Program-made: the position numbers and the translations under genes
Origin: a virus
Taxonomy: Duplodnaviria > Heunggongvirae > Uroviricota > Caudoviricetes
Reading direction: 5' to 3' (one strand)
Virus record (IMG/VR): IMGVR_UViG_2711768036_000001
DNA length: 11,692 bases
Notes under the pieces: generated by a model
Seen by the model: the letters and a program-made list of their open reading frames with translations, nothing else
Database searches by the model: none
Told to the model about the DNA's origin: nothing
In this document: positions 1 to 11,692 of the stretch, piece after piece
How positions within the stretch are numbered: position 1 is the stretch's first letter
Layout: each line of letters opens with the position of its first letter

Positions 1-1125
1 TGTTTCATTGCGAGAAATACCCGCGTAAAAAAAGGACTCATGCCTGTGCGCTTCAAAAGAGTCATCCTGAAGACTTAGCAAGGCACGTCCCGCATCCACT
101 CCACGCCCGTCATCCCAGCCACGAATAAACTCACCACGTAAATCAGGCAATTTATTTGTCGGATAAGCCTTTGCCAGTTCCGGGTATTCTTCAGCAGAAA
201 AAGCGGCACCGTTGCATTTCAGCCAGCCTGTTGGCGGAGTGGCTGAAGGCCACGGAACAGGCACCCCAATCGGTAATGCAGAGCCTTCTCCCAAACCAAG
301 GTATGCGAGAAGACCGGCAACATCCTTTCCACTCAAATGAGTCAGCGTATTGTCCAGCGGTTGTTTACCTGCCAGCGCATTGTTAATGGTGGTGCTGAAT
401 TTCGGGTCATTGTTAATGGCTGCGGCAATTTCTTTCAGTGTGTCCAGCGTGGCAGGCGCACCATTAACCAGAGCGGTAATAGCAGCCTGTACAAACGCAG
501 TGGTCGCAATCCGCGTGGTGTTATTTCCTGCATCAGGAGTCGGCGCTTTTGGTTCTCCGGTAAATGTCGGATTATGTTTCTGTGCATACTGGGTATGAGG
601 ATCCTGTGCGGCAATGTGGTTTCTCATCTGGTCATCCACATACAGCTTCAATTCCAGGACTTCATCATCCACGTATTTACGGGTCGCCAGTACCACCGAC
701 GGGTCGATTTTCAGCGTGATGGCTTCGGTATTCGTGACAACCAGAATCATGCGGATAGTCTGGGTGCGGCCACTGCCTTCCTGTAACAGCGGTTTGTACG
801 TTTCCGGGCAGTTCGCCACCGCAATGAGTACGCCTTCATCATCATAAAGCCCAATCTCACGGATCCAGAATCCGCCCTCGTTCTCAGGGATGATTTGCTC
901 CGCAATAATCTGGCTCTGGTTGTTCGGGTCAACACTCAGAAGATTCAGCGGTGCAATGCGTTTCTGATTAATCAGTTTTGTCTGTGCCGGGTCTGGTGTC
1001 GGCAAGACACCATTCGCATCACCAACGGCCATTTGCGTCAGATTCAGCTTACTGCCGAGCATCGTCGCGTTAGCCAGCCGTGCTGCGCCCTGATTAGTCA
1101 GAATGGCGTAGTATTTCACTGTCAT
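1..1125 (-). CDS. H: Tail fibre protein, N-terminal ~375 codons only (gene continues beyond window start). P2 gpH-like N-terminal anchor followed by a tail-collar-like motif.
   Basis: I reverse-complemented 1..1125 and translated it: ATG at 1125..1123 with no stop down to position 1, and a stop 6 codons upstream in the same frame. N-terminus MTVKYYAILTNQGAARLANATMLGSKLNLTQMAVGD...GGFWIREIGLYDDEGVLIAVANCPETYKPLLQEGSGR resembles the conserved N-terminal domain of P2 gpH but is diverged. Near the window edge the protein reads GWLKCNGAAFSAEEYPELAKAYP...LPDLRGEFIRGWDDGRGVD, typical of phage tail-collar fibre domains. ATGA start/stop overlap with I. Not in the ORF track because it has no stop inside the window. 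Confidence 0.85.
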   Translation of the reverse strand, partial: MTVKYYAILTNQGAARLANATMLGSKLNLTQMAVGDANGVLPTPDPAQTKLINQKRIAPLNLLSVDPNNQSQIIAEQIIPENEGGFWIREIGLYDDEGVLIAVANCPETYKPLLQEGSGRTQTIRMILVVTNTEAITLKIDPSVVLATRKYVDDEVLELKLYVDDQMRNHIAAQDPHTQYAQKHNPTFTGEPKAPTPDAGNNTTRIATTAFVQAAITALVNGAPATLDTLKEIAAAINNDPKFSTTINNALAGKQPLDNTLTHLSGKDVAGLLAYLGLGEGSALPIGVPVPWPSATPPTGWLKCNGAAFSAEEYPELAKAYPTNKLPDLRGEFIRGWDDGRGVDAGRALLSLQDDSFEAHRHESFFYAGISRNET

Positions 1126-1733
1126 GCGTTTACTCTCAGGTTATCAATTAAATGAATGGCCGAGGCCGGGAAATAATCCCCTCCGACAATAATGGCCTCC
1201 GGGGTGTAGGGATAAACCGTCAGGGCGTCGCCGTGATAGCATCCCGCACCGGCAAAAATGTTGCCGGTTGTACTTAAACTGATAGCCAGTCCCGTCAGAT
1301 GGCGGCTTGCAGGTTTTGCATCAGCAACGAGACGCTCCAGCTCCTGATACATTTCCTCGGTAATACCCTGCTCAAGCACGCCAACAACGATGCGGAACGT
1401 CCCTGGCTCCTCGTTGAGCTGCCACCACTCCCTCACCTCAATCAGATAGCCGAGCGGCTCCACCACACGGCGAATCGCACCAATAGTGCCCTTATGGCAG
1501 TGAATGAAATACGCATCGCGGATAACAGCGCGTTTGGTCGCTTCCGGCCATTTATCATCCCACCTGTCGACCGAAAATGACCACGCCAGCCACGGCAGCA
1601 GATTTGCCGGGCAGGTGTCCGGGTTCCACAGCTCACGAATACTGACCGGTGTTTTTTCAATTTCCGCACAGGCTTTTGCGGCGGCAACTTCAAGCGGTGA
1701 TGAGCCGGTCGGCAGCAGTCGCGAATCACTCAT
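1122..1733 (-). CDS. I: Baseplate assembly protein (P2 gpI-like), 203 aa
   Basis: ORF track 1122..1733. N-terminus MSDSRLLPTGSSPLEVAAAKACAEIEKTPVSIRELWNPDT recognised as P2 gpI. GGAGG lies 5 nt upstream of the ATG on the minus strand (revcomp of 1739..1743). The start overlaps the J stop and the stop overlaps the H start. Longer than P2 gpI (176 aa from memory). Confidence 0.9.
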   Translation of the reverse strand: MSDSRLLPTGSSPLEVAAAKACAEIEKTPVSIRELWNPDTCPANLLPWLAWSFSVDRWDDKWPEATKRAVIRDAYFIHCHKGTIGAIRRVVEPLGYLIEVREWWQLNEEPGTFRIVVGVLEQGITEEMYQELERLVADAKPASRHLTGLAISLSTTGNIFAGAGCYHGDALTVYPYTPEAIIVGGDYFPASAIHLIDNLRVNA

Positions 1734-2634
1734 CCGAGCCTCCGGTCACGACGCGGTATTCGGTACAGAAAGACGCCTGCGTACTGTTGAGCACGATGTC
1801 GGCCAGTGGTGCGGCCAGCTCGACACGCTGCACGCCTTCCACATGCAAAGCGGCATAAATGGCAGACAGACGGATGTCGCGCCCCAGCCGGTGCTGTGCC
1901 GTGATATACGCTTCCAGTTTTTTCACGGCGGCAGCGCGAATGGGTTCGCTTTCGGGACCAGGGTAAAGATACAGCGTGGCGTTTATCTGGTATTCAACGA
2001 TGGCGGCAGACTGCACGGTCACACGGTCAGCCACCGGCCTGACGTCCTCACCATTAAGGGCGTTACGCACCACAGCCAGCAGGTCTTCGGATGCGACACC
2101 GTTATTTTCACGTGACAGCACGGAGATGGTGACGCAGGCAGGAGACGGACTGGTAACAGAGATATCCGCGACACGCCCGTCAGCACTGCGACCATGATAC
2201 TGATAGGCACCCACCGACCCGGCGACGCTTAAACCTTCAAAGGCCTGCTGAATACGCAGACGATAATCGGTGTCAGATTCCATCACGGCCGGTGTCGGCG
2301 GGAGGGTCGAATCATCTGCCGGAGTGATAATCAGGCGCGTAGTGTTGTAATTGGCACCAATCACATCAAGGTCATTACCGGCTGCACAGGCCAGCATCAC
2401 CGCCCGTGCGGCCTCATTCACACGCTGACGCCAGATAAGCTCACGATAAGCATTTTCCTCCAGCAGTTTGACGAGAGGTTCGGATTCCAGCGTCAGGGTA
2501 CGGGCGACCGCCTCCTGCTGGTCTTCCGGGTAAAGGGAAATCAGTGTCGCCTTGCGTTCGGCAAGAATGGTTTCAAAGTCCAGCTCCTCGACCACATCCG
2601 GTGCGGGTAGCTGGTTCAGGTCGATAATCGGCAT
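1726..2634 (-). CDS. J: Baseplate assembly protein (P2 gpJ-like), 302 aa
   Basis: ORF track 1726..2634, 302 aa, same length as P2 gpJ as I recall. N-terminus MPIIDLNQLPAPDVVEELDFETILAERKA recognised. Sits between W and I as in P2. Confidence 0.92.
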   Translation of the reverse strand: MPIIDLNQLPAPDVVEELDFETILAERKATLISLYPEDQQEAVARTLTLESEPLVKLLEENAYRELIWRQRVNEAARAVMLACAAGNDLDVIGANYNTTRLIITPADDSTLPPTPAVMESDTDYRLRIQQAFEGLSVAGSVGAYQYHGRSADGRVADISVTSPSPACVTISVLSRENNGVASEDLLAVVRNALNGEDVRPVADRVTVQSAAIVEYQINATLYLYPGPESEPIRAAAVKKLEAYITAQHRLGRDIRLSAIYAALHVEGVQRVELAAPLADIVLNSTQASFCTEYRVVTGGSDE

Positions 2635-2638
2635 GGTT

Positions 2639-2986
2639 TCAACTCACAGGGATGGTTAACGAAAGTGGCTGGCCGGTGTCGTTGTGCTGGCCGGTTAACG
2701 TGACCGTCATTCGCCCGTCAAAACTGTGCTCAGTGGTGACGGATGACAGGGTGACGCGGGGTTCCCATTTCAGCACCGCCATGTAACAGGCGACCTTAAT
2801 CTGCAACTCAAGCGCCGGAGTCTGCGGCTGGTCAATCATTGACGCCAGCAACGAGCCGTAATCACGACGCATCACCCGTGAGCCGACCGGTGTGCGCAGG
2901 ATATCGCCGATACTCTGGCTGATATGCTCAAGGTCAGTGACCGTCAGGCCATCACTGCGATTCATTCCGAGATAACGCGCTGTCAT
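2639..2986 (-). CDS. W: Baseplate wedge protein (P2 gpW-like, T4 gp25-like fold), 115 aa
   Basis: ORF track 2639..2986, 115 aa matching P2 gpW. N-terminus MTARYLGMNRSDGLTVTDLEHISQSIGDIL recognised. The start overlaps the V stop (ATGA at 2983..2986). Confidence 0.92.
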   Translation of the reverse strand: MTARYLGMNRSDGLTVTDLEHISQSIGDILRTPVGSRVMRRDYGSLLASMIDQPQTPALELQIKVACYMAVLKWEPRVTLSSVTTEHSFDGRMTVTLTGQHNDTGQPLSLTIPVS

Positions 2987-3618
2987 AAAGGACTCCCGGT
3001 TGTGCCGCCGCTGTCGCCGGGGTGTTTGTGGGTATGCAGTACCTTACCGTTTGAGGAGAGTTCACCGCCGGTGTGTTCAATGTTGCCGCGCATCGTCCCG
3101 CCCTTCTGCACTTCCAGCGTGCCGGTAATCAGCCTGTTGGTGCAGACCACCTCCGGTGTGTCCAGGGTAACGCGGGTTGATGCTTTCACCGTGACCACCG
3201 GCACCGTGGCAGTAACAGAATCAGAAGCCGTCACGCTGGCCGTTTTAATTCCGCTTACCGTGAGTGCGCTGGTTTCGGGTTCATACTCAATCACCGCCCC
3301 GTCAGGGAAACGGATATGCAGGGCATCCGCCGACGCAGACGGCGCGGGGTTATCACCGGAATAAATCCCCGGCAGAACGAACGCCGTGTCGAGTTCACCG
3401 CCCACGGCCAGAATCAGCACCTGTTCCCCCTCGGAAGGTGCCCACCACGTGCGCGAACGTCCGGCGCGATGGGTCAGCCACTGAAGCCAGTCGGTGCACA
3501 TGCCGCCGGTCTGCACACGGCAGCGACCGGCGTTAAGGTCGGTTTCGACGACAAGGCCGGTGCGAATCATGTTGCGCAGTGCGCGCGCGAGTTCCTGAAT
3601 ATTTGCGAGAGTGTTCAT
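2983..3618 (-). CDS. V: Baseplate central spike protein (P2 gpV-like), 211 aa
   Basis: ORF track 2983..3618, 211 aa matching P2 gpV. N-terminus MNTLANIQELARALRNMIRTGLVVETD recognised. First gene after the S-V intergenic gap. Confidence 0.92.
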   Translation of the reverse strand: MNTLANIQELARALRNMIRTGLVVETDLNAGRCRVQTGGMCTDWLQWLTHRAGRSRTWWAPSEGEQVLILAVGGELDTAFVLPGIYSGDNPAPSASADALHIRFPDGAVIEYEPETSALTVSGIKTASVTASDSVTATVPVVTVKASTRVTLDTPEVVCTNRLITGTLEVQKGGTMRGNIEHTGGELSSNGKVLHTHKHPGDSGGTTGSPL

Positions 3619-3684
3619 AACGGGAAGGATGCCGCCGGGTCATACCGGCGGCAATGTGACGATGAGGTGTCAGGAATGGCACAA
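3619..3684 (-). promoter_or_regulatory. S-V intergenic region; expected position of a P2-type late promoter for V-W-J-I-H (P_V), assigned by synteny only
   Basis: 66-nt gap between the S stop and the V start, which in P2 carries the activator-dependent late promoter P_V. Seen in the sequence: an 8-bp GC-rich inverted repeat gccgccgg/ccggcggc at 3631..3638 and 3645..3652 (6-nt loop), and TGT-N10-ACA at 3668..3683. No exact TGT-N12-ACA found. Confidence 0.3.
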
Positions 3685-4137
3685 CTAACGGTCGAGGTGA
3701 GCCAGGATAATCTCTTCAATCATCTGCACATCCTCACTGGTAAAGCCGAGCAGAGGACGCGCCGGATAATCAATTTTCTTACCGTCTTTCCGGTTTTCTT
3801 CCGACAGACCGAACTGATGCACGCTGGCGATTTTCGGTGACTTCCCGCCGTAAAACTCCATTGATGCCTGTTCCGGGCTGGCGCGGATATGCAAAAAACG
3901 ACTGGTGATAAGTTTCGCAAACATTTTTCGCTTAACACGACCAGTCTTTTTTCTGGCGCTCTGCTGCTGGCGTGGCGCGTAGGGTGTGCCGTCCGGGGCT
4001 TTCTGAGCCATCACCCGACGCTGCTGACTCTGCCGCAGACGTTTCGCCAGTTCGGCGCTCAGTCGCCGACGCCCTGACGGTGACAGCGATTCAATCAGTC
4101 CGGTCAGCCGGTCTTCAAAACGCTTAAACTCATTCAT
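3685..4137 (-). CDS. S: Tail completion protein (P2 gpS-like), 150 aa
   Basis: ORF track 3685..4137, 150 aa matching P2 gpS. N-terminus MNEFKRFEDRLTGLIESLSPSGRRRLSAELAKRL recognised. The start overlaps the R stop by 8 nt. Confidence 0.92.
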   Translation of the reverse strand: MNEFKRFEDRLTGLIESLSPSGRRRLSAELAKRLRQSQQRRVMAQKAPDGTPYAPRQQQSARKKTGRVKRKMFAKLITSRFLHIRASPEQASMEFYGGKSPKIASVHQFGLSEENRKDGKKIDYPARPLLGFTSEDVQMIEEIILAHLDR

Positions 4138-4597
4138 CCCACTTGCTCACCAGTTCGCCATTGATATAAAGCTCCACCGGGCGGGTGACCGGCTCCGGCG
4201 GCGGGGGTTCCGGGATATTCTTCACATGCAGTGCGCCGTCCACCTCACTGACCAGCGTGCGCTCGGTCAGCATCAGGCTGATGCTGATATCAAAGCTGCT
4301 GTCATTGTTGATGTCTGCATAAAACGTGAAGCCCTTTTTCTGGCCTGCGTCGGTGGTCATGATGTCGGGCTGATTTTCCCGCAGCCACGCCAGCACCGGC
4401 ACGATGAGCAGGTCAAAATCACCGGTAAAGTCGGTCACAATCACATTGAGCGTGTAACGCTTTTCGAATGACAGCGACGTCGCCAGTGTGGAGGCAATAC
4501 TCCCGTTATCCACGAATATCCGCAGCATATCGGGGTTAGTTTTCAGCACCGTGACGGCATCAGTCAGCGCCCTGCGCAGGCTGTCGGGTTTGAGCAT
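4130..4597 (-). CDS. R: Tail completion protein (P2 gpR-like), 155 aa
   Basis: ORF track 4130..4597, 155 aa matching P2 gpR. N-terminus MLKPDSLRRALTDAVTVLKTNPDMLRIF recognised. Confidence 0.92.
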   Translation of the reverse strand: MLKPDSLRRALTDAVTVLKTNPDMLRIFVDNGSIASTLATSLSFEKRYTLNVIVTDFTGDFDLLIVPVLAWLRENQPDIMTTDAGQKKGFTFYADINNDSSFDISISLMLTERTLVSEVDGALHVKNIPEPPPPEPVTRPVELYINGELVSKWDE

Positions 4598-4850
4598 CGT
4601 TTTCGTCCTGACAGTGTTTAATCATTTTTACCTGGCTGGCACAGCGCGCCAGCGCGTTCTCAAGCTGCCGGATATCAGCACTTAAATCGCCGTTCGTCTG
4701 CGGGTCACTGCCCGGCATCGGGCAAAGGCTCACTTTCGGGCAGGCGTTGGCGACAATCACTGGCGTCAGTGCAGGCCGGGCGCTGGTGCAACCGGCGCAC
4801 AGCATCAGGCAGGTCAGCGCCGTACCAGCGGCGAAAATCTTCGTTTTCAT
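4560..4850 (-). CDS. lysC: Outer-membrane spanin lipoprotein (Rz1-like, P2 LysC), 96 aa, embedded out of frame in lysB
   Basis: ORF track lists 4560..4967 (135 aa). I place the start at the internal Met at 4850 (cat at 4848..4850), giving MKTKIFAAGTALTCLMLCAGCTSARPALTP..., a signal peptide followed by Cys in a lipobox-like context. 96 aa matches P2 LysC. Lies within lysB in another frame, and its 3' end overlaps the R start (4560..4597). Confidence 0.8.
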   Translation of the reverse strand: MKTKIFAAGTALTCLMLCAGCTSARPALTPVIVANACPKVSLCPMPGSDPQTNGDLSADIRQLENALARCASQVKMIKHCQDENDAQTRQPAQGAD

Positions 4851-5130
4851 TAAGTAACCCCGTGATGGTTTTCTCGCGCTGTGCTTCACGCTTCGCGGCG
4901 TTCTCCAGTTCCTGACGCAGTGCCACCTGCGCCAGCTCGTTTTTGTCTGCCCTGGTGAGGGCAACATGAAGCTGATTTTTCAGCATGGTGATGGTCGTCT
5001 GCTGCCCGCTGGCGACGTTACTCGCCCTGTCCAGTGAGGTGCGCAGGCTGGCGTTTTCATGCTTCGCCAGAAACAGACCGGCCACCGCCAGTGATAACAA
5101 CACAACCAGCACAATCATCAGCTTTGACAT
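4705..5130 (-). CDS. lysB: Inner-membrane spanin (Rz-like, P2 LysB), 141 aa
   Basis: ORF track 4705..5130, 141 aa. Hydrophobic N-terminal segment MSKLMIVLVVLLSLAVAGLFLA followed by a charged, helix-prone region (ELAQVALRQELENAAKREAQREK). The start overlaps the lysA stop. Confidence 0.88.
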   Translation of the reverse strand: MSKLMIVLVVLLSLAVAGLFLAKHENASLRTSLDRASNVASGQQTTITMLKNQLHVALTRADKNELAQVALRQELENAAKREAQREKTITGLLNENEDFRRWYGADLPDAVRRLHQRPACTDASDCRQRLPESEPLPDAGQ

Positions 5131-5543
5131 GGTTCCCGCCCCTCAAAACGCTGACGACAGGCCGTACGTATCAGCCGGAAGAACACCGACACCACGAGGT
5201 AAATCAGCGCGGTAAAAATCCACCCGGCAGCGACCAGCGAGATAAACGTCGCCACCATCACTACCAGAGCCGCCGCCCGTCTGCGCCACGGCACCGGCTG
5301 CAAAAACAGCGACGTGACAATCTTCACGGCCAGCGATTCCGGTGGCAGCTCCCGCCCGTAGCGTTCCAGCACATACTCAGTGGCATACACGCCGACACCA
5401 CCGGCAACCACACAGATAACCGTCGCCAGAATCGCCCAGGCGGCGACAAAATTGACGGCCACGCTCTGCGGGTAAATCAGGGACAGTGCCAGCATCAGCG
5501 CCAGCGACACATTCAGCATCAGTGAAAGGGATAATTTCTTCAT
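5118..5543 (-). CDS. lysA: Lysis-timing membrane protein (P2 LysA-like, antiholin-type), 141 aa
   Basis: ORF track 5118..5543, 141 aa. Several hydrophobic helices (LSLMLNVSLALMLALSLIY; AILATVICVVAGGVGVYA; LVVMVATFISLVAAGWIFTALIYLVVSVFF). Position between K and lysB as in P2. Confidence 0.88.
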   Translation of the reverse strand: MKKLSLSLMLNVSLALMLALSLIYPQSVAVNFVAAWAILATVICVVAGGVGVYATEYVLERYGRELPPESLAVKIVTSLFLQPVPWRRRAAALVVMVATFISLVAAGWIFTALIYLVVSVFFRLIRTACRQRFEGREPCQS

Positions 5544-5557
5544 GGTGTTTACTCCGT

Positions 5558-6055
5558 TTAAGCCGGTACGCCGCCAGCGGTACGCCAGACGGTGACCAGT
5601 TTTTCCAGTGAATGCTCACGCTGACCGTAACCGGCACCCGGCAGGGACGCCCAGATATTGCGACAGCGTGAAATGGCGCGCTCAATGCGTCCCGCCCGGA
5701 TGTCATCCAGCGCACCGCGTTCGCGGATCAACTGAATGGCGAGCCTGTCCTGTGACAACGGACTGAAATCAGGCAGGGCAAGCTGTTTGCGGTAGTGCGG
5801 CCAGAACAGGTAAAGCTGCTGATAGCGACCGGAGGCCGTGGATTTTTCACCGCGACGGTTAAACACCTTCGCCGGTCGGCCATGCGCGAACGGGTGGTCA
5901 CTGTAGTCGGTGAATATTTCCGGCTTCCCGTCCAGTCCGGTGACTATCACGTCATAGCCCCGGTTTTTCGTCAGCGGATGATTCGCCGTCCCTTCGGACA
6001 CGGCCAGCATGTCGAGAAAGGCGGCGATATTCTGATGCGTGTTAATAACCGGCAT
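5558..6055 (-). CDS. K: Endolysin, lambda R-type lytic transglycosylase/lysozyme family (P2 gpK-like), 165 aa
   Basis: ORF track 5558..6055, 165 aa. Recognised as P2 gpK, with a lambda R-like motif (FLDMLAVSEGT...GYDVIV...FTDYSDHP...CRNIWASLPGAGYGQ). The start overlaps the Y stop by 1 nt (TAATG). Confidence 0.93.
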   Translation of the reverse strand: MPVINTHQNIAAFLDMLAVSEGTANHPLTKNRGYDVIVTGLDGKPEIFTDYSDHPFAHGRPAKVFNRRGEKSTASGRYQQLYLFWPHYRKQLALPDFSPLSQDRLAIQLIRERGALDDIRAGRIERAISRCRNIWASLPGAGYGQREHSLEKLVTVWRTAGGVPA

Positions 6056-6336
6056 TACGGTTTCCCCCTGCCCTTAAAGCGACGCTGAATGGCAATCTCA
6101 ATCACCTGATAACCGGCGATACCCAGCATGGAGCCGATGCCGCACACCGCAGGCAGTGACAGGTCAGGAAACTGCACCAGAACAACACCGGCAACCATCG
6201 AGACAAAACCACCGAGCAACATACGCCCGATAAACAGACGCGGGGTGATGGGTTCACCACCGGCAAGCACCTTGCCGACAACAATCAGCACCCCAATCAT
6301 GAAAAGCGACAGGACGCTTTTTTCTTCTGCTGTCAT
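6055..6336 (-). CDS. Y: Holin (P2 gpY-like), 93 aa
   Basis: ORF track 6055..6336, 93 aa matching P2 gpY. Hydrophobic helices (VLSLFMIGVLIVVGKVLAGG; LLGGFVSMVAGVVLV; AVCGIGSMLGIAGY) and a basic C-terminus (RRFKGRGKP). Confidence 0.9.
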   Translation of the reverse strand: MTAEEKSVLSLFMIGVLIVVGKVLAGGEPITPRLFIGRMLLGGFVSMVAGVVLVQFPDLSLPAVCGIGSMLGIAGYQVIEIAIQRRFKGRGKP

Positions 6337-6339
6337 GCG

Positions 6340-6543
6340 TTACTCCCACAGGTTGACAGTTTCAGCCACGGGCGCGGTCTGAACGTCGGGCAGTTCGACG
6401 GCGGTGCCGTGTGGCAGCACCGCACCCAGTTCAGCCAGTCCCGGATTTGCGGCGAGCACGGTCTCAACCACGCCCTCAGTGCGCCCGTAATACCGGACAC
6501 AAATGGCGTCGAGCGTGTCGCCCTGTAGCGCAAAGGTCTTCAT
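6340..6543 (-). CDS. X: Tail protein X (P2 gpX-like, LysM-like), 67 aa
   Basis: ORF track lists 6340..6612 (90 aa). I place the start at the internal Met at 6543, giving MKTFALQGDTLDAICVRYYGRTEGVVETVLAANPGLAELG, recognised as P2 gpX (67 aa). That ATG overlaps the L stop (ATGA at 6541..6545). The upstream extension would overlap L coding sequence. Confidence 0.88.
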   Translation of the reverse strand: MKTFALQGDTLDAICVRYYGRTEGVVETVLAANPGLAELGAVLPHGTAVELPDVQTAPVAETVNLWE

Positions 6544-7052
6544 CAGATTTGACTCACGATGCAGCGCGGCTTGTCCTGGATGCGCGCCACCGCCCAGCGC
6601 ATATCCCGCCACAGTTCATCGATGGTGCTGTCAATGCTGTCAGCCTTCTTGTCGCCTTTCGCACTGGCATCCACGCCGCGATAACGCTCATAAAGCGATG
6701 CGGTCGCCATCGCACACACGGCGCGCTCGTAGTAAAAAACTTTGATGCTTTCACCGTCGATGTCGTCCGCCGGGACGTCAGCCAGACGCGTAAAACCGGC
6801 GGCAATTTTCTGTTCGCGGTACTCGTACAGCTCCGCATTCGTTTCAGCCATGCCTGACTTGATGGCCTCACGCAGACGGGCGGGGGCGACGGTCTGCTCA
6901 AGGCGCATACGTTCCCGGACGCGCTTCGGGTCGATATCGGGAAAAAAGAACGTGTTTTTAATCACCGGCTCGTCGCCTGCCGGTTGCGGGATGACCACCG
7001 TACCCTCACCGGACACGGGAGCCTCCTTTCGCGGAATAATCAGCGTCATCAT
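6543..7052 (-). CDS. L: Head completion/stabilisation protein (P2 gpL-like), 169 aa
   Basis: ORF track lists 6543..7112 (189 aa). The conserved P2 gpL N-terminus MMTLIIPRKEAPVSGEGTVVIPQPAG starts at the Met at 7052 (cat cat at 7047..7052). A GAGG lies upstream on the minus strand (revcomp of 7058..7061, about 6 nt from the ATG). 169 aa matches P2 gpL. Confidence 0.88.
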   Translation of the reverse strand: MMTLIIPRKEAPVSGEGTVVIPQPAGDEPVIKNTFFFPDIDPKRVRERMRLEQTVAPARLREAIKSGMAETNAELYEYREQKIAAGFTRLADVPADDIDGESIKVFYYERAVCAMATASLYERYRGVDASAKGDKKADSIDSTIDELWRDMRWAVARIQDKPRCIVSQI

Positions 7053-7151
7053 GACTACCTCTGAAAAGTCGGGCGGTGGACGCCGGTACAGCGTCAGGTG
7101 AGTCACCCTCACTGACCGGCGTGCCGCCCTGGCGCGGGGCGCATTCGGTTG

Positions 7152-7895
7152 TTAACTGGCTTTCTTTTTCGGGCGTCCACGTTTTGCCGGTGTCACGCTC
7201 CGGGTCTTACGCGGGGCGCGGGTGGCCGCTTTTGGCTGCGGCTCCGGCTTCGGTTTCAGCTCCCGCTCCAGTCGTTCAATCTCTTTTTTGACGCCTGCCT
7301 GACAGTCGAGCTGTGTCGCACGTTGCAGGTGAGCCAGCGCACCGGCGGCATCACCACCGTCACGCAGAAACAGACCGGTAATTTTGTGCAGCTTTGCGCG
7401 CACTTCATCAGGCATGTCAGCCGTGGCGGTCAGTTCAAGGGTCTCCGTCAGCAGGCGGGTATCCACAGACTCACCGGCAGCGTGAGCGCGCATGGCCGCA
7501 AGCGCTACCTCCTCGGTGAACATGTACGGCGGGGTACGGCGGTGTTTACCCGGCATGGTCAGACCGTACTTCAGGGCATAACGGGCAATCTCCAGCGCAC
7601 CGGCAATATCGCCGGTATCCAGACGCCACAGCATGACCGTCATCAGAATGTCATCCTGTGCACCTTTGCCCTGCTCCAGCACGCCGTTCACCCACGGCAA
7701 CCAGAACGGCAGCAGTTCGCGTTTTTTCGCGGCCTTCAGCTCTTTTGAATAAATCGCTTTCAGTGTGCGCTGGTCTGCGGCGAGCTTAACCAGCATCTGC
7801 TCATAGACAGTTGCATGTCGCAGCGGGGCGGCTTCCCGCTGCGCGGTCATCGCTGCCGAGACCCGCATCATGTGGCGCTGTGCGGGACTCGTCAT
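7152..7895 (-). CDS. M: Terminase small (endonuclease) subunit (P2 gpM-like), 247 aa
   Basis: ORF track 7152..7895, 247 aa matching P2 gpM. N-terminus MTSPAQRHMMRVSAAMTAQREAAPLRHATVYEQMLVKLAADQRTLK recognised. Basic, Pro/Lys-rich C-terminus. The start lies 4 nt from the N stop. Confidence 0.92.
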   Translation of the reverse strand: MTSPAQRHMMRVSAAMTAQREAAPLRHATVYEQMLVKLAADQRTLKAIYSKELKAAKKRELLPFWLPWVNGVLEQGKGAQDDILMTVMLWRLDTGDIAGALEIARYALKYGLTMPGKHRRTPPYMFTEEVALAAMRAHAAGESVDTRLLTETLELTATADMPDEVRAKLHKITGLFLRDGGDAAGALAHLQRATQLDCQAGVKKEIERLERELKPKPEPQPKAATRAPRKTRSVTPAKRGRPKKKAS

Positions 7896-7898
7896 CGG

Positions 7899-8972
7899 TT
7901 ACGCTCCAGGCTCTGCGGTCGCTTTAGCCAGTGTGGAGAAATCACCGACCTTAATTTTTTCCACCAGACAACCGGCGGCGTAGTCTTCCACCACGTAATC
8001 AATGTTCATTGACTCGTAGTTCTCCACGCGGTCGAGTTTCGGGTTTTCCTCAATCACGCGGCGATGGCTGTCATCCATGTAGTAGATGGACAGGTTTTCC
8101 AGCTTTGTGATGAGCATCGCATCCGCCGGGAAGTACGGGACGCGTACCGCCGGCAGGTTACCGATGCGTTTCTGGCTGATGATGACGTCAGCGGCCAGCA
8201 TTTCGCTGTTGTCCTGCTCCTTGTTGACGATGGGAAAATACTTGTCCGCCAGTAGCTGACGTCCCACAATCACCACAAGGTCAGGGTCTTCCTGATACCA
8301 CGGCTCAATCAGGTTGTTGGTCGCATCCATCACCAGTGCGTCAAGGCTGGCATAATCACCGCCCTTACCCACGCGGATAACCTCAGAGGTGGTGTGCCCT
8401 TCCTCGTCAGTGACCTTGCTCATCACGCGCGCCGGTGCTTCATTGCGGTATTTCTGCAGCCAGCCGACCGCCACATCCTGTAGCATCGGATTACTGCTGC
8501 GGTCAGAGGTTTCGGCACGCCTCACGCCGTTAAAACCGGCCATGATGAAATCAAGGGACTGGCGTTTGATAATGGCGTTACGGATACGGAGCTGGAAATC
8601 CTGATAACGCGCCCACAGGTCAAGCTTTTTGTAGCGGATATAAAAATCGAAGTTAATCTGGTCGCATTCGTACTTGTTAGACGCCAGCTTCGAGAAGTCA
8701 TTCGGCTGACGCTCGGTGCCACCGGCGGTGTCGGTGGTGCTGGCGATGGAGCCGGTGACACCGATGCCAATTTTTTCCCCTTTCATTTCGCTGACCGGCA
8801 CAATGTTGATGCTGGTCAGAAAGTCAGAGGACTCCTGCATGGTGTTCATCAGGGTCTGGGTGACCGACGGTTCAACGGTGAATTTTTTCGACACATCACC
8901 GGCGTCGATGCCGTTCAGCTCGGCAACACGGGACAGGTAGGAATTAAATTTAAAGCGGGTTTCCTGGCGCAT
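7899..8972 (-). CDS. N: Major capsid protein (P2 gpN-like), 357 aa
   Basis: ORF track 7899..8972, 357 aa matching P2 gpN. N-terminus MRQETRFKFNSYLSRVAELNGIDAGDVSKKFTVEPSVTQTLMNTMQESSDFL recognised. Confidence 0.95.
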   Translation of the reverse strand: MRQETRFKFNSYLSRVAELNGIDAGDVSKKFTVEPSVTQTLMNTMQESSDFLTSINIVPVSEMKGEKIGIGVTGSIASTTDTAGGTERQPNDFSKLASNKYECDQINFDFYIRYKKLDLWARYQDFQLRIRNAIIKRQSLDFIMAGFNGVRRAETSDRSSNPMLQDVAVGWLQKYRNEAPARVMSKVTDEEGHTTSEVIRVGKGGDYASLDALVMDATNNLIEPWYQEDPDLVVIVGRQLLADKYFPIVNKEQDNSEMLAADVIISQKRIGNLPAVRVPYFPADAMLITKLENLSIYYMDDSHRRVIEENPKLDRVENYESMNIDYVVEDYAAGCLVEKIKVGDFSTLAKATAEPGA

Positions 8973-9030
8973 AGTTTTTCCTGAAATTAAGGGTTAATTG
9001 TGAAGGTTTTCCCGGGCTGACTGACGCCGG

Positions 9031-9885
9031 TCAGCAGTTCGTCATCAGGGCGTCACCGCCACCGCCGGTGGCCTTGCTGCGGCGCTGCTGGGTCAGACTT
9101 TCGGTGTTGTCGAGACTGTTTTTCAGGCGGGTGAATGCCTGGCTGGTTTCATCCGCCCTGTCAGTCACCTCCTGCTTAAGTGCGGAAAAGGCAGTTTCCA
9201 TCTCAGCGAGTCGCTGCTCAGTGGCGCTCAGTTTTTCCTGTACATGTTCAGCAACAGCGGTCACCGCTTCATGCACGTCATTCAGACGGGCGTCATCGCT
9301 GGCCTGTTTGCGGCCAAAAATGGATTTCACCTTTTCGGTCAGGGCGGTGAACACGGTTTCAGGCAGGTCTTCAAATTCCAGCTCAACAGGCGTTGCCACT
9401 GAAATCAGGTTTTCAGGGCTTAATTTGAAGCGGTTCAGGGGGTTGTGTTTTGCCGTGCGGCAGAATTCCAGATATTCCGTGCCGAGGCTTGCCGGGTCAT
9501 CGGTGACGGCCAGCCCCACCAGATAACATTTGCCGGTGTTGGCAAAGTTCGGCTGGATTTCCATTGAGGTATAGACCTTCTGCGCGGCCTTGTTCATCGC
9601 GATAAGGTCATCGGTCGGGGTGATTTTCGCAAACAGCGCCCATTTGCCTTTCAGCGCCGAATCATCGTCAATCTTTTCGGCCTTCAGTTCGGCCACATCG
9701 CCATAACGCTTAAAAATACCGTCAGGCAGGATGCCGCGCAGATGTTCCAGGTTAATACGGCAACCATAGACACGCGGGTCAAAGGTTTCGGCCATTTCCT
9801 GAATATCCTGCGCACTGATGACACGCCCGTCACAGGTGTCACCCTCAACGCCGATACGAAAGAATTTTGAGACTTTTTTTGCCAT
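9031..9885 (-). CDS. O: Capsid scaffolding protein (P2 gpO-like), 284 aa
   Basis: ORF track lists 9031..9951 (306 aa). The conserved P2 gpO N-terminus MAKKVSKFFRIGVEGDTCDGRVISAQDIQEMAETFDP starts at the Met at 9885 (cat at 9883..9885). 284 aa matches P2 gpO. An AGGA lies upstream on the minus strand. Confidence 0.9.
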   Translation of the reverse strand: MAKKVSKFFRIGVEGDTCDGRVISAQDIQEMAETFDPRVYGCRINLEHLRGILPDGIFKRYGDVAELKAEKIDDDSALKGKWALFAKITPTDDLIAMNKAAQKVYTSMEIQPNFANTGKCYLVGLAVTDDPASLGTEYLEFCRTAKHNPLNRFKLSPENLISVATPVELEFEDLPETVFTALTEKVKSIFGRKQASDDARLNDVHEAVTAVAEHVQEKLSATEQRLAEMETAFSALKQEVTDRADETSQAFTRLKNSLDNTESLTQQRRSKATGGGGDALMTNC

Positions 9886-10058
9886 TGTCAGGAGTCCTGA
9901 ATAGTGATTAGAGGAGTCACATGTCGGCATCAGTTTCCCGACGATGCGCATCCTCCGCCATCAGTCCCGGATGGCTTATCACTGACACAACAGCACCTTA
10001 GCGAATCGCGGGACGCGACTCAGTAGCCTTGCCGTGTATTCATCACGGCGAGGTATTC
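9886..10058. promoter_or_regulatory. Divergent O/P intergenic control region; expected site of the back-to-back late promoters (P_O leftward, P_P rightward), assigned by synteny
   Basis: 173-nt non-coding gap between the divergently oriented O (minus) and P (plus) starts. In P2 the equivalent gap holds the two activator-dependent late promoters. Seen in the sequence: TGG-N12-ACA at 9972..9989 (a 5/6 match to the TGT-N12-ACA dyad I recall for P2 late promoters, centred about 78 nt upstream of the P ATG), inverted repeat tcagt-N15-actga at 9961..9985, and an imperfect dyad tgtcgg-N10-ccgacg at 9922..9943. Confidence 0.5.
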
Positions 10059-11692
10059 ATGACCATCACCACAGACACCACTCTTTTACACGACCCGCGT
10101 CGTCAGGCGGCGCTGCTGTACTGGCAGGGATTTTCCGTGCCGCAGATTGCCGCCATGTTGCAGATGAAACGCCCGACGGTGCAGAGCTGGAAACAGCGCG
10201 ACGGCTGGGACAGCGTTGCCCCCATCAGCCGTGTCGAAATGAGTCTGGAAGCGCGGCTGACCCAGCTCATCATCAAACCGCAGAAAACCGGCGGTGACTT
10301 CAAGGAAATTGACCTGCTGGGACGCCAGATTGAACGACTGGCACGGGTAAACCGCTACAGTCAGACCGGCAACGAGGCAGACCTTAATCCAAACGTCGCT
10401 AACCGCAACAAAGGCGGGCGTCGCAAACCGAAAAAGAATTTTTTCAGTGACGAGGCCATCGAAAAGCTGGAGCAGATTTTCTTTGAGCAGTCTTTCGACT
10501 ATCAGTTGCACTGGTATCGCGCCGGGCTTGAGCACCGCATCCGCGATATCCTGAAATCCCGCCAGATTGGCGCGACGTTTTATTTTTCCCGCGAGGCGCT
10601 GCTGCGCGCCCTGAAAACCGGCCATAACCAGATTTTTCTGTCGGCCAGTAAAACGCAGGCGTATGTGTTCCGCGAATACATCATCGCCTTTGCCCGTCTG
10701 GTTGACGTTGACCTGACCGGTGACCCGATTGTCCTGGGCAATAACGGCGCAAAACTGATTTTTCTCGGCACCAACTCCAACACCGCACAGAGCCATAACG
10801 GCGACCTGTACGTCGACGAGATTTTCTGGATCCCGAATTTTCAGGTACTGCGTAAGGTGGCATCAGGTATGGCCTCACAGAGCCACCTGCGTTCGACCTA
10901 TTTCTCCACCCCGTCCACGCTGGCGCACGACGCCTACCCGTTCTGGTCGGGTGAACTGTTCAACCGGGGACGCGCCAGCGCCGCCGAACGCGTGGAAATC
11001 GACGTCAGTCATAACGCCCTTGCCGGTGGGCTTCTCTGTGCGGACGGCCAGTGGCGGCAGATTGTCACCATTGAGGATGCCCTGAAAGGCGGCTGCACGC
11101 TGTTCGACATTGAGCAGCTCAAACGCGAAAACAGCGCCGACGATTTTAAAAACCTGTTCATGTGTGAATTTGTTGACGACAAGGCGTCGGTGTTCCCGTT
11201 CGAGGAGCTGCAACGCTGCATGGTCGACACGCTGGAAGAATGGGAAGACTATGCGCCGTTTGCCGCGAATCCGTTCGGCTCCCGCCCGGTATGGATTGGT
11301 TACGACCCGTCACACCGTGGCGACAGCGCCGGATGCGTGGTACTGGCACCGCCGGTGGTGGCCGGTGGCAAATTCAGAATACTTGAGCGTCACCAGTGGA
11401 AAGGCATGGACTTTGCCACTCAGGCTGAATCCATCCGCAAACTCACCGAGAAATACAACGTCGAATACATCGGTATTGATGCCACCGGCCTCGGTGTCGG
11501 CGTGTTCCAGCTCGTGCGCTCGTTCTATCCCGCCGCACGCGACATCCGCTACACGCCGGAAATGAAAACCGCAATGGTGCTCAAGGCCAAAGACGTTATC
11601 CGCCGTGGCTGTCTGGAATATGACGTCAGCGCCACCGACATCACCAGCTCGTTTATGGCTATCCGCAAGACCATGACCAGCAGCGGACGCAG
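10059..11692 (+). CDS. P: Terminase large (ATPase) subunit (P2 gpP-like), N-terminal ~544 of ~590 codons (runs off window end)
   Basis: ATG at 10059..10061 preceded by GAGG at 10050..10053. The frame stays open to the window end (continuous with the P2 gpP-like sequence; absent from the ORF track because it has no stop in the window). N-terminus MTITTDTTLLHDPRRQAALLYWQGFSVPQIAAMLQMKRPTVQSWKQRDGWDS recognised as P2 gpP. Divergent from O as in P2. Confidence 0.93.
   Translation, partial: MTITTDTTLLHDPRRQAALLYWQGFSVPQIAAMLQMKRPTVQSWKQRDGWDSVAPISRVEMSLEARLTQLIIKPQKTGGDFKEIDLLGRQIERLARVNRYSQTGNEADLNPNVANRNKGGRRKPKKNFFSDEAIEKLEQIFFEQSFDYQLHWYRAGLEHRIRDILKSRQIGATFYFSREALLRALKTGHNQIFLSASKTQAYVFREYIIAFARLVDVDLTGDPIVLGNNGAKLIFLGTNSNTAQSHNGDLYVDEIFWIPNFQVLRKVASGMASQSHLRSTYFSTPSTLAHDAYPFWSGELFNRGRASAAERVEIDVSHNALAGGLLCADGQWRQIVTIEDALKGGCTLFDIEQLKRENSADDFKNLFMCEFVDDKASVFPFEELQRCMVDTLEEWEDYAPFAANPFGSRPVWIGYDPSHRGDSAGCVVLAPPVVAGGKFRILERHQWKGMDFATQAESIRKLTEKYNVEYIGIDATGLGVGVFQLVRSFYPAARDIRYTPEMKTAMVLKAKDVIRRGCLEYDVSATDITSSFMAIRKTMTSSGR

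Follow-up and report, generated by a model that had tools for sequence, protein, structure and literature searches.

A long gene I and a putatively invertible tail fibre at one end of a P2-like phage sequence

The DNA examined here, called the window throughout, is a stretch of 11,692 nucleotides (nt) from a tailed phage (IMG/VR record IMGVR_UViG_2711768036_000001) which closely resembles phage P2 over most of its length. Its positions 1-1733 carry the tail gene I and the visible beginning of the tail-fibre gene H. A first-pass annotation, made from the letters and a list of open reading frames, had seen in this end a P2-type anchor with a foreign fibre fused on. The comparisons reported below point to a different composition. 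Very likely, 1-1733 are I plus the first 375 codons of H from a P2-like (Peduovirus) prophage or phage which possesses a long-I, Fels-2-type invertible fibre module, i.e., a docking pair, a constant shaft, and a variable tip which starts at 286-311.

Genes and domains of the fibre end

The genes V, W, J, I, and H follow each other in this order on the minus strand. Their stop and start codons overlap, and I is located between J and the fibre gene. V, W, and J code for 211, 115, and 302 amino acids (aa). These are the lengths in the P2 record, as the first-pass annotation had stated, and the three proteins match the expected Pfam families. I (1733-1122, minus strand) codes for 203 aa, compared to 176 aa in P2. 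The greater length, noticed early on, is accounted for by an extension of 27 aa which comes after a conserved TVYP motif. The I stop is overlapped by the start codon of H (ATGA at 1125-1122). H (1125-1, minus strand) runs off the window at position 1 with 375 codons visible. The features are as follows.

1446..1733, minus strand: N-terminal part of I, P2-type, codons 1 to ~96; 98% aa identity to P2 I residues 1-95
1125..1445, minus strand: C-terminal half of I, alternative "long-I" form, codons ~97-203; dense mismatches to P2 from 1443
1125..1205, minus strand: C-terminal extension of I, codons 177-203, 27 aa; not in P2, Wphi, 186, or pyocin Tri2
676..1125, minus strand: H anchor (baseplate-attachment domain), residues 1-150; PF12571
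312..675, minus strand: H shaft of the constant part, residues ~151-271; widely shared fibre motif at about residues 190-255 (361-558)
286..311, no strand assigned: crossover site of 26 bp, Din-family (Gin/Cin/Pin-type), encoding LLAYLGLGE; within H, ahead of the collar domain
1..285, minus strand: start of the variable part of H; PF07484 collar domain at 124-267, HRH (residues 360-362) at 40-48

The domain assignments are clear-cut. Residues 7-143 of I match Tail_P2_I (PF09684) with 189.6 bits against a curated cut-off of 20.6, and residues 3-176 align with pyocin R2 Tri2 PA0619 (PDB 6u5b, 177 aa; E 5.6e-41). Residues 1-150 of H cover the profile PF12571 completely (positions 1-150 of 150; 208.6 bits, E 5.6e-62). 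The N-terminus of H is thus indeed a diverged P2-H-like domain, as initially suggested. Residues 287-334 match Collar (PF07484) with 56.1 bits against a cut-off of 24 (E 3.5e-15). The tail-collar motif which had been quoted earlier falls into this match, and the domain expected at residues ~290-375 is present. A PDB sequence search with H turned up no solved P2-H or pyocin-fibre anchor. H residues 206-269 match a chain designated "tail collar fibers gp4", and the collar region aligns with short-tail-fibre chains.

The shaft is 44% identical in aa sequence to P2 H residues 246-364; its DNA at 358-528 is 70% identical to P2 and to lambda stf. Short internal repeats had been claimed for it. Searches for direct and tandem repeats in the shaft found no tandem array; all that turned up was a pair of 12-nt repeats at a distance of 30 nt and a second copy of YVDD, and the claim is dropped.

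H is more AT-rich than its surroundings, as had been noticed. Its guanine-plus-cytosine (GC) content is 51.5%, and 0.51 at third codon positions (GC3), compared to 57.3% elsewhere in the window, where every 1125-nt stretch has at least 53.1%. We considered GC content as a sign of foreign origin. At the scale of 1.1 kb the difference is seen, at 400 nt it is not: the 400-nt windows 8601-9000 and 9601-10000 have 51% GC and are part of the head-gene backbone, which is 97.8% identical to P2. Since conserved P2-like backbone is equally low, low GC alone is weak evidence of foreign DNA.

Departure from P2 and pairing of I with the H anchor

Aligned with P2 DNA the window is colinear, with an identity of 97.8% over 3683-11692 and 94.6% over 1297-3618. 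Below 1297, P2 is alignable only over a 155-nt stretch of the shaft (358-511) at 70%. In 60-nt steps the identity remains at ~95% down to ~1451, is 62-72% for 1450-1211, and then vanishes; single 60-nt windows within 1446-1733 range from 88 to 100%, with ~95% upstream. Compared base by base, an identical run of 26 nt is followed by dense mismatches from 1443, about codon 97 of I. Residual DNA similarity is gone at ~1300, codon 145 of I. As dense mismatches begin at 1443, the P2-type junction is at about codon 97, i.e., in the middle of I and not near its 3' end as formerly assumed. With megablast, the matches to all phages whose I has 176 aa end at 1297-1303. This limit is the end of residual similarity and not the junction.

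A different picture emerges when the parts of the locus are compared separately with several relatives. J is 99% identical in aa sequence to that of P2, 79% to that of the Yersinia Eganvirus MDG45, and 62% to that of Salmonella phage Fels-2. For I residues 1-95 the corresponding values are 98, 68, and 58%. For I residues 96 to the end they are 47, 78, and 51%, and for H residues 1-150 they are 51 (51-52), 85, and 65%; 186 also has 51% in the anchor. Further, 22 of the 27 residues of the I extension are identical in MDG45. The same incongruence prevails between 186 and MDG45, which belong to one genus: J is 80% identical, I residues 96 to the end only 45%, and the H anchor 53%. Such similarities rule out a simple fast divergence in place.

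We then asked how strictly the two segments go together. An IMG/VR set, fetched by the P2-like N-terminus of I, contains 75 loci with a scorable H. Every 203-aa I in it is next to a window-type anchor (at least 97% identical to the window, ~52% to P2), and every 176-aa I is next to a P2-type anchor (81-100% identical to P2). A GTDB scan with one genome per species gave 71 loci, 61 of which have an I of at least 200 aa with a window-type anchor and 10 an I of 176-177 aa with a P2-type anchor, with 0 exceptions. Altogether, I length and anchor type co-vary without exception in 146 loci from many enterobacterial genera. Long-I genera are Escherichia, Enterobacter, Citrobacter, Kluyvera, Kosakonia, Yersinia, Rahnella, Xenorhabdus, Photorhabdus, and Erwinia, among others.

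Two earlier views have to be revised at this point. The long I had been taken as a departure; among enterobacterial P2-like prophages it predominates, and the short I of P2 is in the minority. The H anchor, regarded as P2-type with a foreign fibre attached, is of a second, non-P2 allelic class which always travels with the long I. Of 5426 complete E. coli genomes, 826 (about 15%) contain the segment 666-1300 with the I C-terminal half and the H anchor, and the long-I module is deposited in several phage genomes.

Structural work on related particles indicates what the pairing may mean. In phage E217 the gene immediately before the fibre gene, on its upstream side, codes for the triplex subunit gp45, to which the N-terminus of the fibre binds (PMC10329688). 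From its position gp45 would be the counterpart of gpI. In the XM1 paper (PA0618)2-PA0619 is equated with the T4 (gp6)2-gp7 wedge (PMC10457771). By homology and co-variation, I together with two copies of J would build the wedge, and it is reasonable to assume that the C-terminal half of I contacts the H anchor, i.e., that the two proteins touch each other. The I C-terminal half would then dock the trimeric H anchor. Probably the pair is inherited as a unit because I is the wedge subunit which binds the fibre trimer.

More tentatively, we propose that the I C-terminal half, with or without the 27-aa tail, and the H anchor constitute two mutually incompatible docking classes which pass from one P2-like genus to another only together. 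The I tail might be situated in the fibre socket, and codon ~97 might be the boundary between the wedge core and the fibre-binding part. We are somewhat more inclined to doubt than to accept this proposal in full. A limited literature search did not find an explicit statement of the I/H pairing, which structural studies of pyocins and the engineering of tailocins may nevertheless imply. The strict pairing of I C-terminal-half and H-anchor classes across genera is the sole mildly new point of this study.

Two observations on the sampled loci are added. A contig of 30,507 nt labelled Vagococcus sp. WN89Y (L118), a Gram-positive genus, carries a P2-like long-I locus with 72% identity to the window I; this is likely a contamination of the assembly. 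Several long-I loci from Xenorhabdus and Photorhabdus (L139, L144, L145, L154, L167, and others) have considerably longer H genes (538-931 aa), mostly without a crossover site.

Crossover site, collar tip, and the region beyond position 1

The sequence TTCTCCCAAACCAAGGTATGCGAGAA at 286-311 has a single mismatch to the palindromic pattern TTCTCNNAAACCNNGGTTTNNGAGAA of Din-family crossover sites; 0 chance matches are expected from 200 shuffles. As a positive control, the e14 locus of E. coli K-12 contains two matches to TTCTCNNAAACCNNGGTTTNNGAGAA, the first within ycfK and the other within the fibre gene beside pinE, and the window site has 23 of 26 bases in common with one of the e14 matches. 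H of Fels-2 reads LLTYLGLGE at the place collinear with LLAYLGLGE in the window. An identical site is present in the prophage of E. coli GF75, in pro483, and in Peduovirus magyaro, all of which have an intact invertase and a partner site. Further, 22 long-I loci from IMG/VR have both sites and the invertase; in 19 short-I IMG/VR loci neither crossover sites nor an invertase were found in any.

Breakpoints within H among the relatives are at ~665-680, 370, 280-293, and 84-107, with some relatives diverging at 370. The largest cluster, 15 relative loci, is at 280-293. The crossover site at 286-311 explains the junction ahead of the collar domain.

Beyond this point the window carries a tip cassette which is shared with quite different elements. 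Collar DNA is 92.7% identical to HK97 stf over 86-305 and 96.5% identical over 104-302 to the fibre gene at the stfE position beside pinE in e14 of K-12. The collar protein has an identity of 45% with both lambda orf-314 and T4 gp37, and relatives of it occur in 790 phage records. The link to lambdoid side-tail-fibre genes, which had been suggested from the motif, is thereby established at both the DNA level (HK97) and the protein level (lambda). In the alignment with the T4 gp37 tip (2xgf), which includes the HxH motif, HRH at residues 360-362 stands opposite HSH of gp37.

The closest relative with flanking sequence is the GF75 prophage. Its DNA has an identity of 98.2% to the entire window, rising to 99.9% in 1-1300, and all 375 visible H residues are identical. 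GF75 H has 454 aa, 79 more than are visible here, and is followed by a tfa gene. A tip and a chaperone gene beyond position 1 had been anticipated in the first-pass annotation. The GF75 C-terminus, NISFNYIVRAA, matches that of gp37 (motif NI-FNYIVR-A); this part is beyond the window and was seen in GF75 only. After tfa come a second tfa gene and a 111-aa fibre fragment, both opposed, and a recombinase gene. Pfam assigns Resolvase and HTH_7, two Caudo_TAP proteins, and a Gp53-like_C tip to this region, and the invertase is 86.7% identical to PinE. The partner site, TTTTCATAAACGTTGGTTTTGGAGAA, is at 4450-4475 of the GF75 locus (L004), with the invertase gene at a distance of 55 nt. The core dinucleotides, TT here and AA in the H site, show that the two GF75 sites are inverted relative to each other. 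The partner escaped a general search for inverted repeats in GF75 because the sites are only ~77% alike; the search with the consensus pattern found it. When the 1836 bp between the cores of GF75 are inverted in silico, an in-frame H' of 373 aa results which ends in Gp53-like_C.

Two observations concern the assembly of such loci. Seven IMG/VR contigs (L027, L030, L036, L044, L045, L051, L060) and one from Escherichia sp. MOD1-EC7003 (L093) end at or just before the H crossover site. As a sign of mixed orientations such ends are ambiguous, because the collar cassette is multi-copy (e14, other prophages) and itself breaks assemblies. In IMGVR_UViG_2565956724_000008 (L031/L070, 47,980 nt) there are two I-H copies in opposite orientation, each with a crossover site, which suggests that the assembly went wrong across the invertible segment and produced a palindrome.

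A probable invertible fibre module, its rivals, and known systems

Considering these data jointly, the following mechanism is the most likely. The shaft would bear either a collar/needle tip of the T4 gp37, e14 StfE, and HK97 Stf kind, which is the orientation in the window, or a gp53-like tip, and each tip would be folded by its own chaperone. A Pin-like serine invertase would flip ~1.84 kb between the site in H and an inverted partner and so choose the tip. The flip would replace the collar tip and its chaperone by the gp53-like tip and a second chaperone, and thus switch receptor specificity in the manner of the Mu G, P1 C, and e14 P segments. By analogy with its relatives, the window's own genome should contain the invertase and the partner site. 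Inversion presumably takes place here as in P2-like prophages of enteropathogenic E. coli (EPEC) and in e14, where it was shown experimentally (Goldberg et al. 2014, PMC4272514). The partner expected in this genome would be an inverted site resembling TTCTCCCAAACCAACGTTTATGAAAA, about 1.8 kb past position 1 and beside a Pin-like gene.

Several points weigh against an invertible module in this genome. The invertase, the partner site, the alternative tip, and both chaperones are beyond the window and are known from relatives only. Long-I loci exist which have no site and only invertase fragments (L024, L034, L035, L039, L048, L049, L064), and a few long-I loci which diverge at ~665-680 likewise keep invertase fragments only; such remnants indicate that the system can decay. 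A relic site is annotated in 186 K, and the window site could be inactive. HK97 stf contains a pattern match, TTCTCCCAAACCAAGGTTTGTGCGAG, with 2 mismatches (L090, 2701-2726), where the 92.7% match to the window begins, and no annotated invertase is present within the 5.2 kb examined. As to the docking pair, the co-variation of I and H may in part reflect tight physical linkage and not a functional constraint, since the two segments abut.

These reservations are the basis for an alternative in which the site at 286-311 is an inactive relic like that in 186 K and the fibre is fixed in the collar orientation. The HK97 match, the seven decayed IMG/VR loci, and the single site visible in the window would agree with it. 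Yet the window site with its one mismatch is identical to those of GF75, pro483, and Peduovirus magyaro, each accompanied by an intact invertase and a partner, and the set is complete in 22 IMG/VR loci. We regard a relic as unlikely. Still less probable is the one-off exchange envisaged originally, in which a collar fibre was grafted on a P2 anchor with a junction near the 3' end of I and without site-specific recombination. It correctly recognized that this end is mosaic relative to P2, that the collar cassette is shared with lambdoid stf genes, and that H has a lower GC content. It fails with respect to a single junction: the change occurs at about codon 97 of I, the anchor itself is of the non-P2 class, and at least 4 further breakpoints in H are common to relatives. 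The break before the collar coincides with the crossover site, overlooked at the time, whose partner and invertase are found in the 99.9%-identical GF75.

Scarcely credible is the view that no exchange occurred and that the I C-terminal half and H merely change more quickly than the remainder of the late operon. As a rule, receptor-binding proteins evolve fast, and the identity to P2 drops stepwise and not at one base. Nevertheless, MDG45 with its more distant J (79%) is 78-85% identical in I residues 96 to the end and in the anchor, and P2 with a J of 99% only 47-51%; 186 and MDG45 differ likewise within one genus, and the collar shares 92-96% DNA identity with lambdoid and e14 elements, which are unrelated. 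A uniform identity to one P2-like phage across J, I, and H, which had been thought to speak against any mosaic, does formally exist with GF75, pro483, and Peduovirus magyaro. This does not argue for the absence of a mosaic; it only shows that the mosaic is an old and widespread one.

The invertible long-I module remains the preferred reading, and the module as such is real, ordinary, and already known. Horizontal exchange of the P2 tail-fibre gene and invertase-driven switching of tips are classical findings. In the Mu G and P1 C host-range switches, operated by Gin and Cin, a constant fibre part with a 26-bp site is combined with alternative tips, each with its chaperones, by a serine invertase. 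By established knowledge the principle is the same; the baseplate-attachment part in the window is of the P2 family. The swapping of tail fibres together with chaperones and the frequent invertases at this locus of P2-like phages are the subject of a 2024 preprint (10.1101/2024.10.15.618418).

The closest known systems are pro483, the "Escherichia phage P2" of KC618326 (Peduovirus magyaro), and the GF75 prophage. They have the same Peduovirus backbone, a 203-aa I, the anchor, the shaft, the crossover site, and an invertase with opposed tfa genes, and their DNA is 96-99.9% identical over 285-2700 or more. In two of them the tip cassettes differ: pro483 departs from the window past 285, Peduovirus magyaro past 67. 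Fels-2 (STM2702-STM2707, Fin invertase) has a 201-aa I, an H constant part collinear up to LLTYLGLGE, a tfa gene, an opposed tfa gene, an alternative-H fragment, and a Cin/Gin-like invertase. Its DNA is alignable with the window over 286-1430 at 67%. Unlike the window it belongs to the genus Felsduovirus, with a J that is 62% identical, and its present tip resembles the P2 H C-terminus and not a collar.

The P segment of e14 in E. coli K-12 (pinE, stfE, tfaE, tfaP, ycfK) shares the collar (96.5%) and near-identical crossover sites with the window and, compared to GF75, an 86.7% identical invertase and two opposed chaperone genes. It differs as a defective element with another constant part and no P2-type I or H anchor. 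P2 itself agrees with the window in gene order, Pfam families, and shaft motif, and its I N-terminus and upstream sequence are 95-98% identical. It differs by its 176-aa I, an I C-terminal half and an H anchor of 47 and 51% identity, respectively, and an H of 669 aa. Neither a crossover site nor an invertase was found in the P2 region searched (9500-15700).

As the first-pass annotation rightly stated, the module sets host range; it does so, and probably switches it, in a very common family of E. coli prophages. "P2 H" as a simple annotation for H is therefore misleading here, and one has to keep in mind that assemblies often break at or near the crossover site. When P2-like phages or tailocins are retargeted, the I C-terminal half should probably be moved together with the H anchor.

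A last observation concerns the far side of the tail genes. The S-V intergenic region (3619-3682) has 64 nt in the window and 938 nt in P2, where it includes the nonessential orf30 on the opposite strand; Wphi, like the window, has no annotated gene between S and V. Identity to P2 is lower in the block of V, W, J, and the I N-terminus (94.6%) than in the head and lysis block (97.8%), and an additional, older mosaic boundary may therefore lie in the S/V intergenic region.

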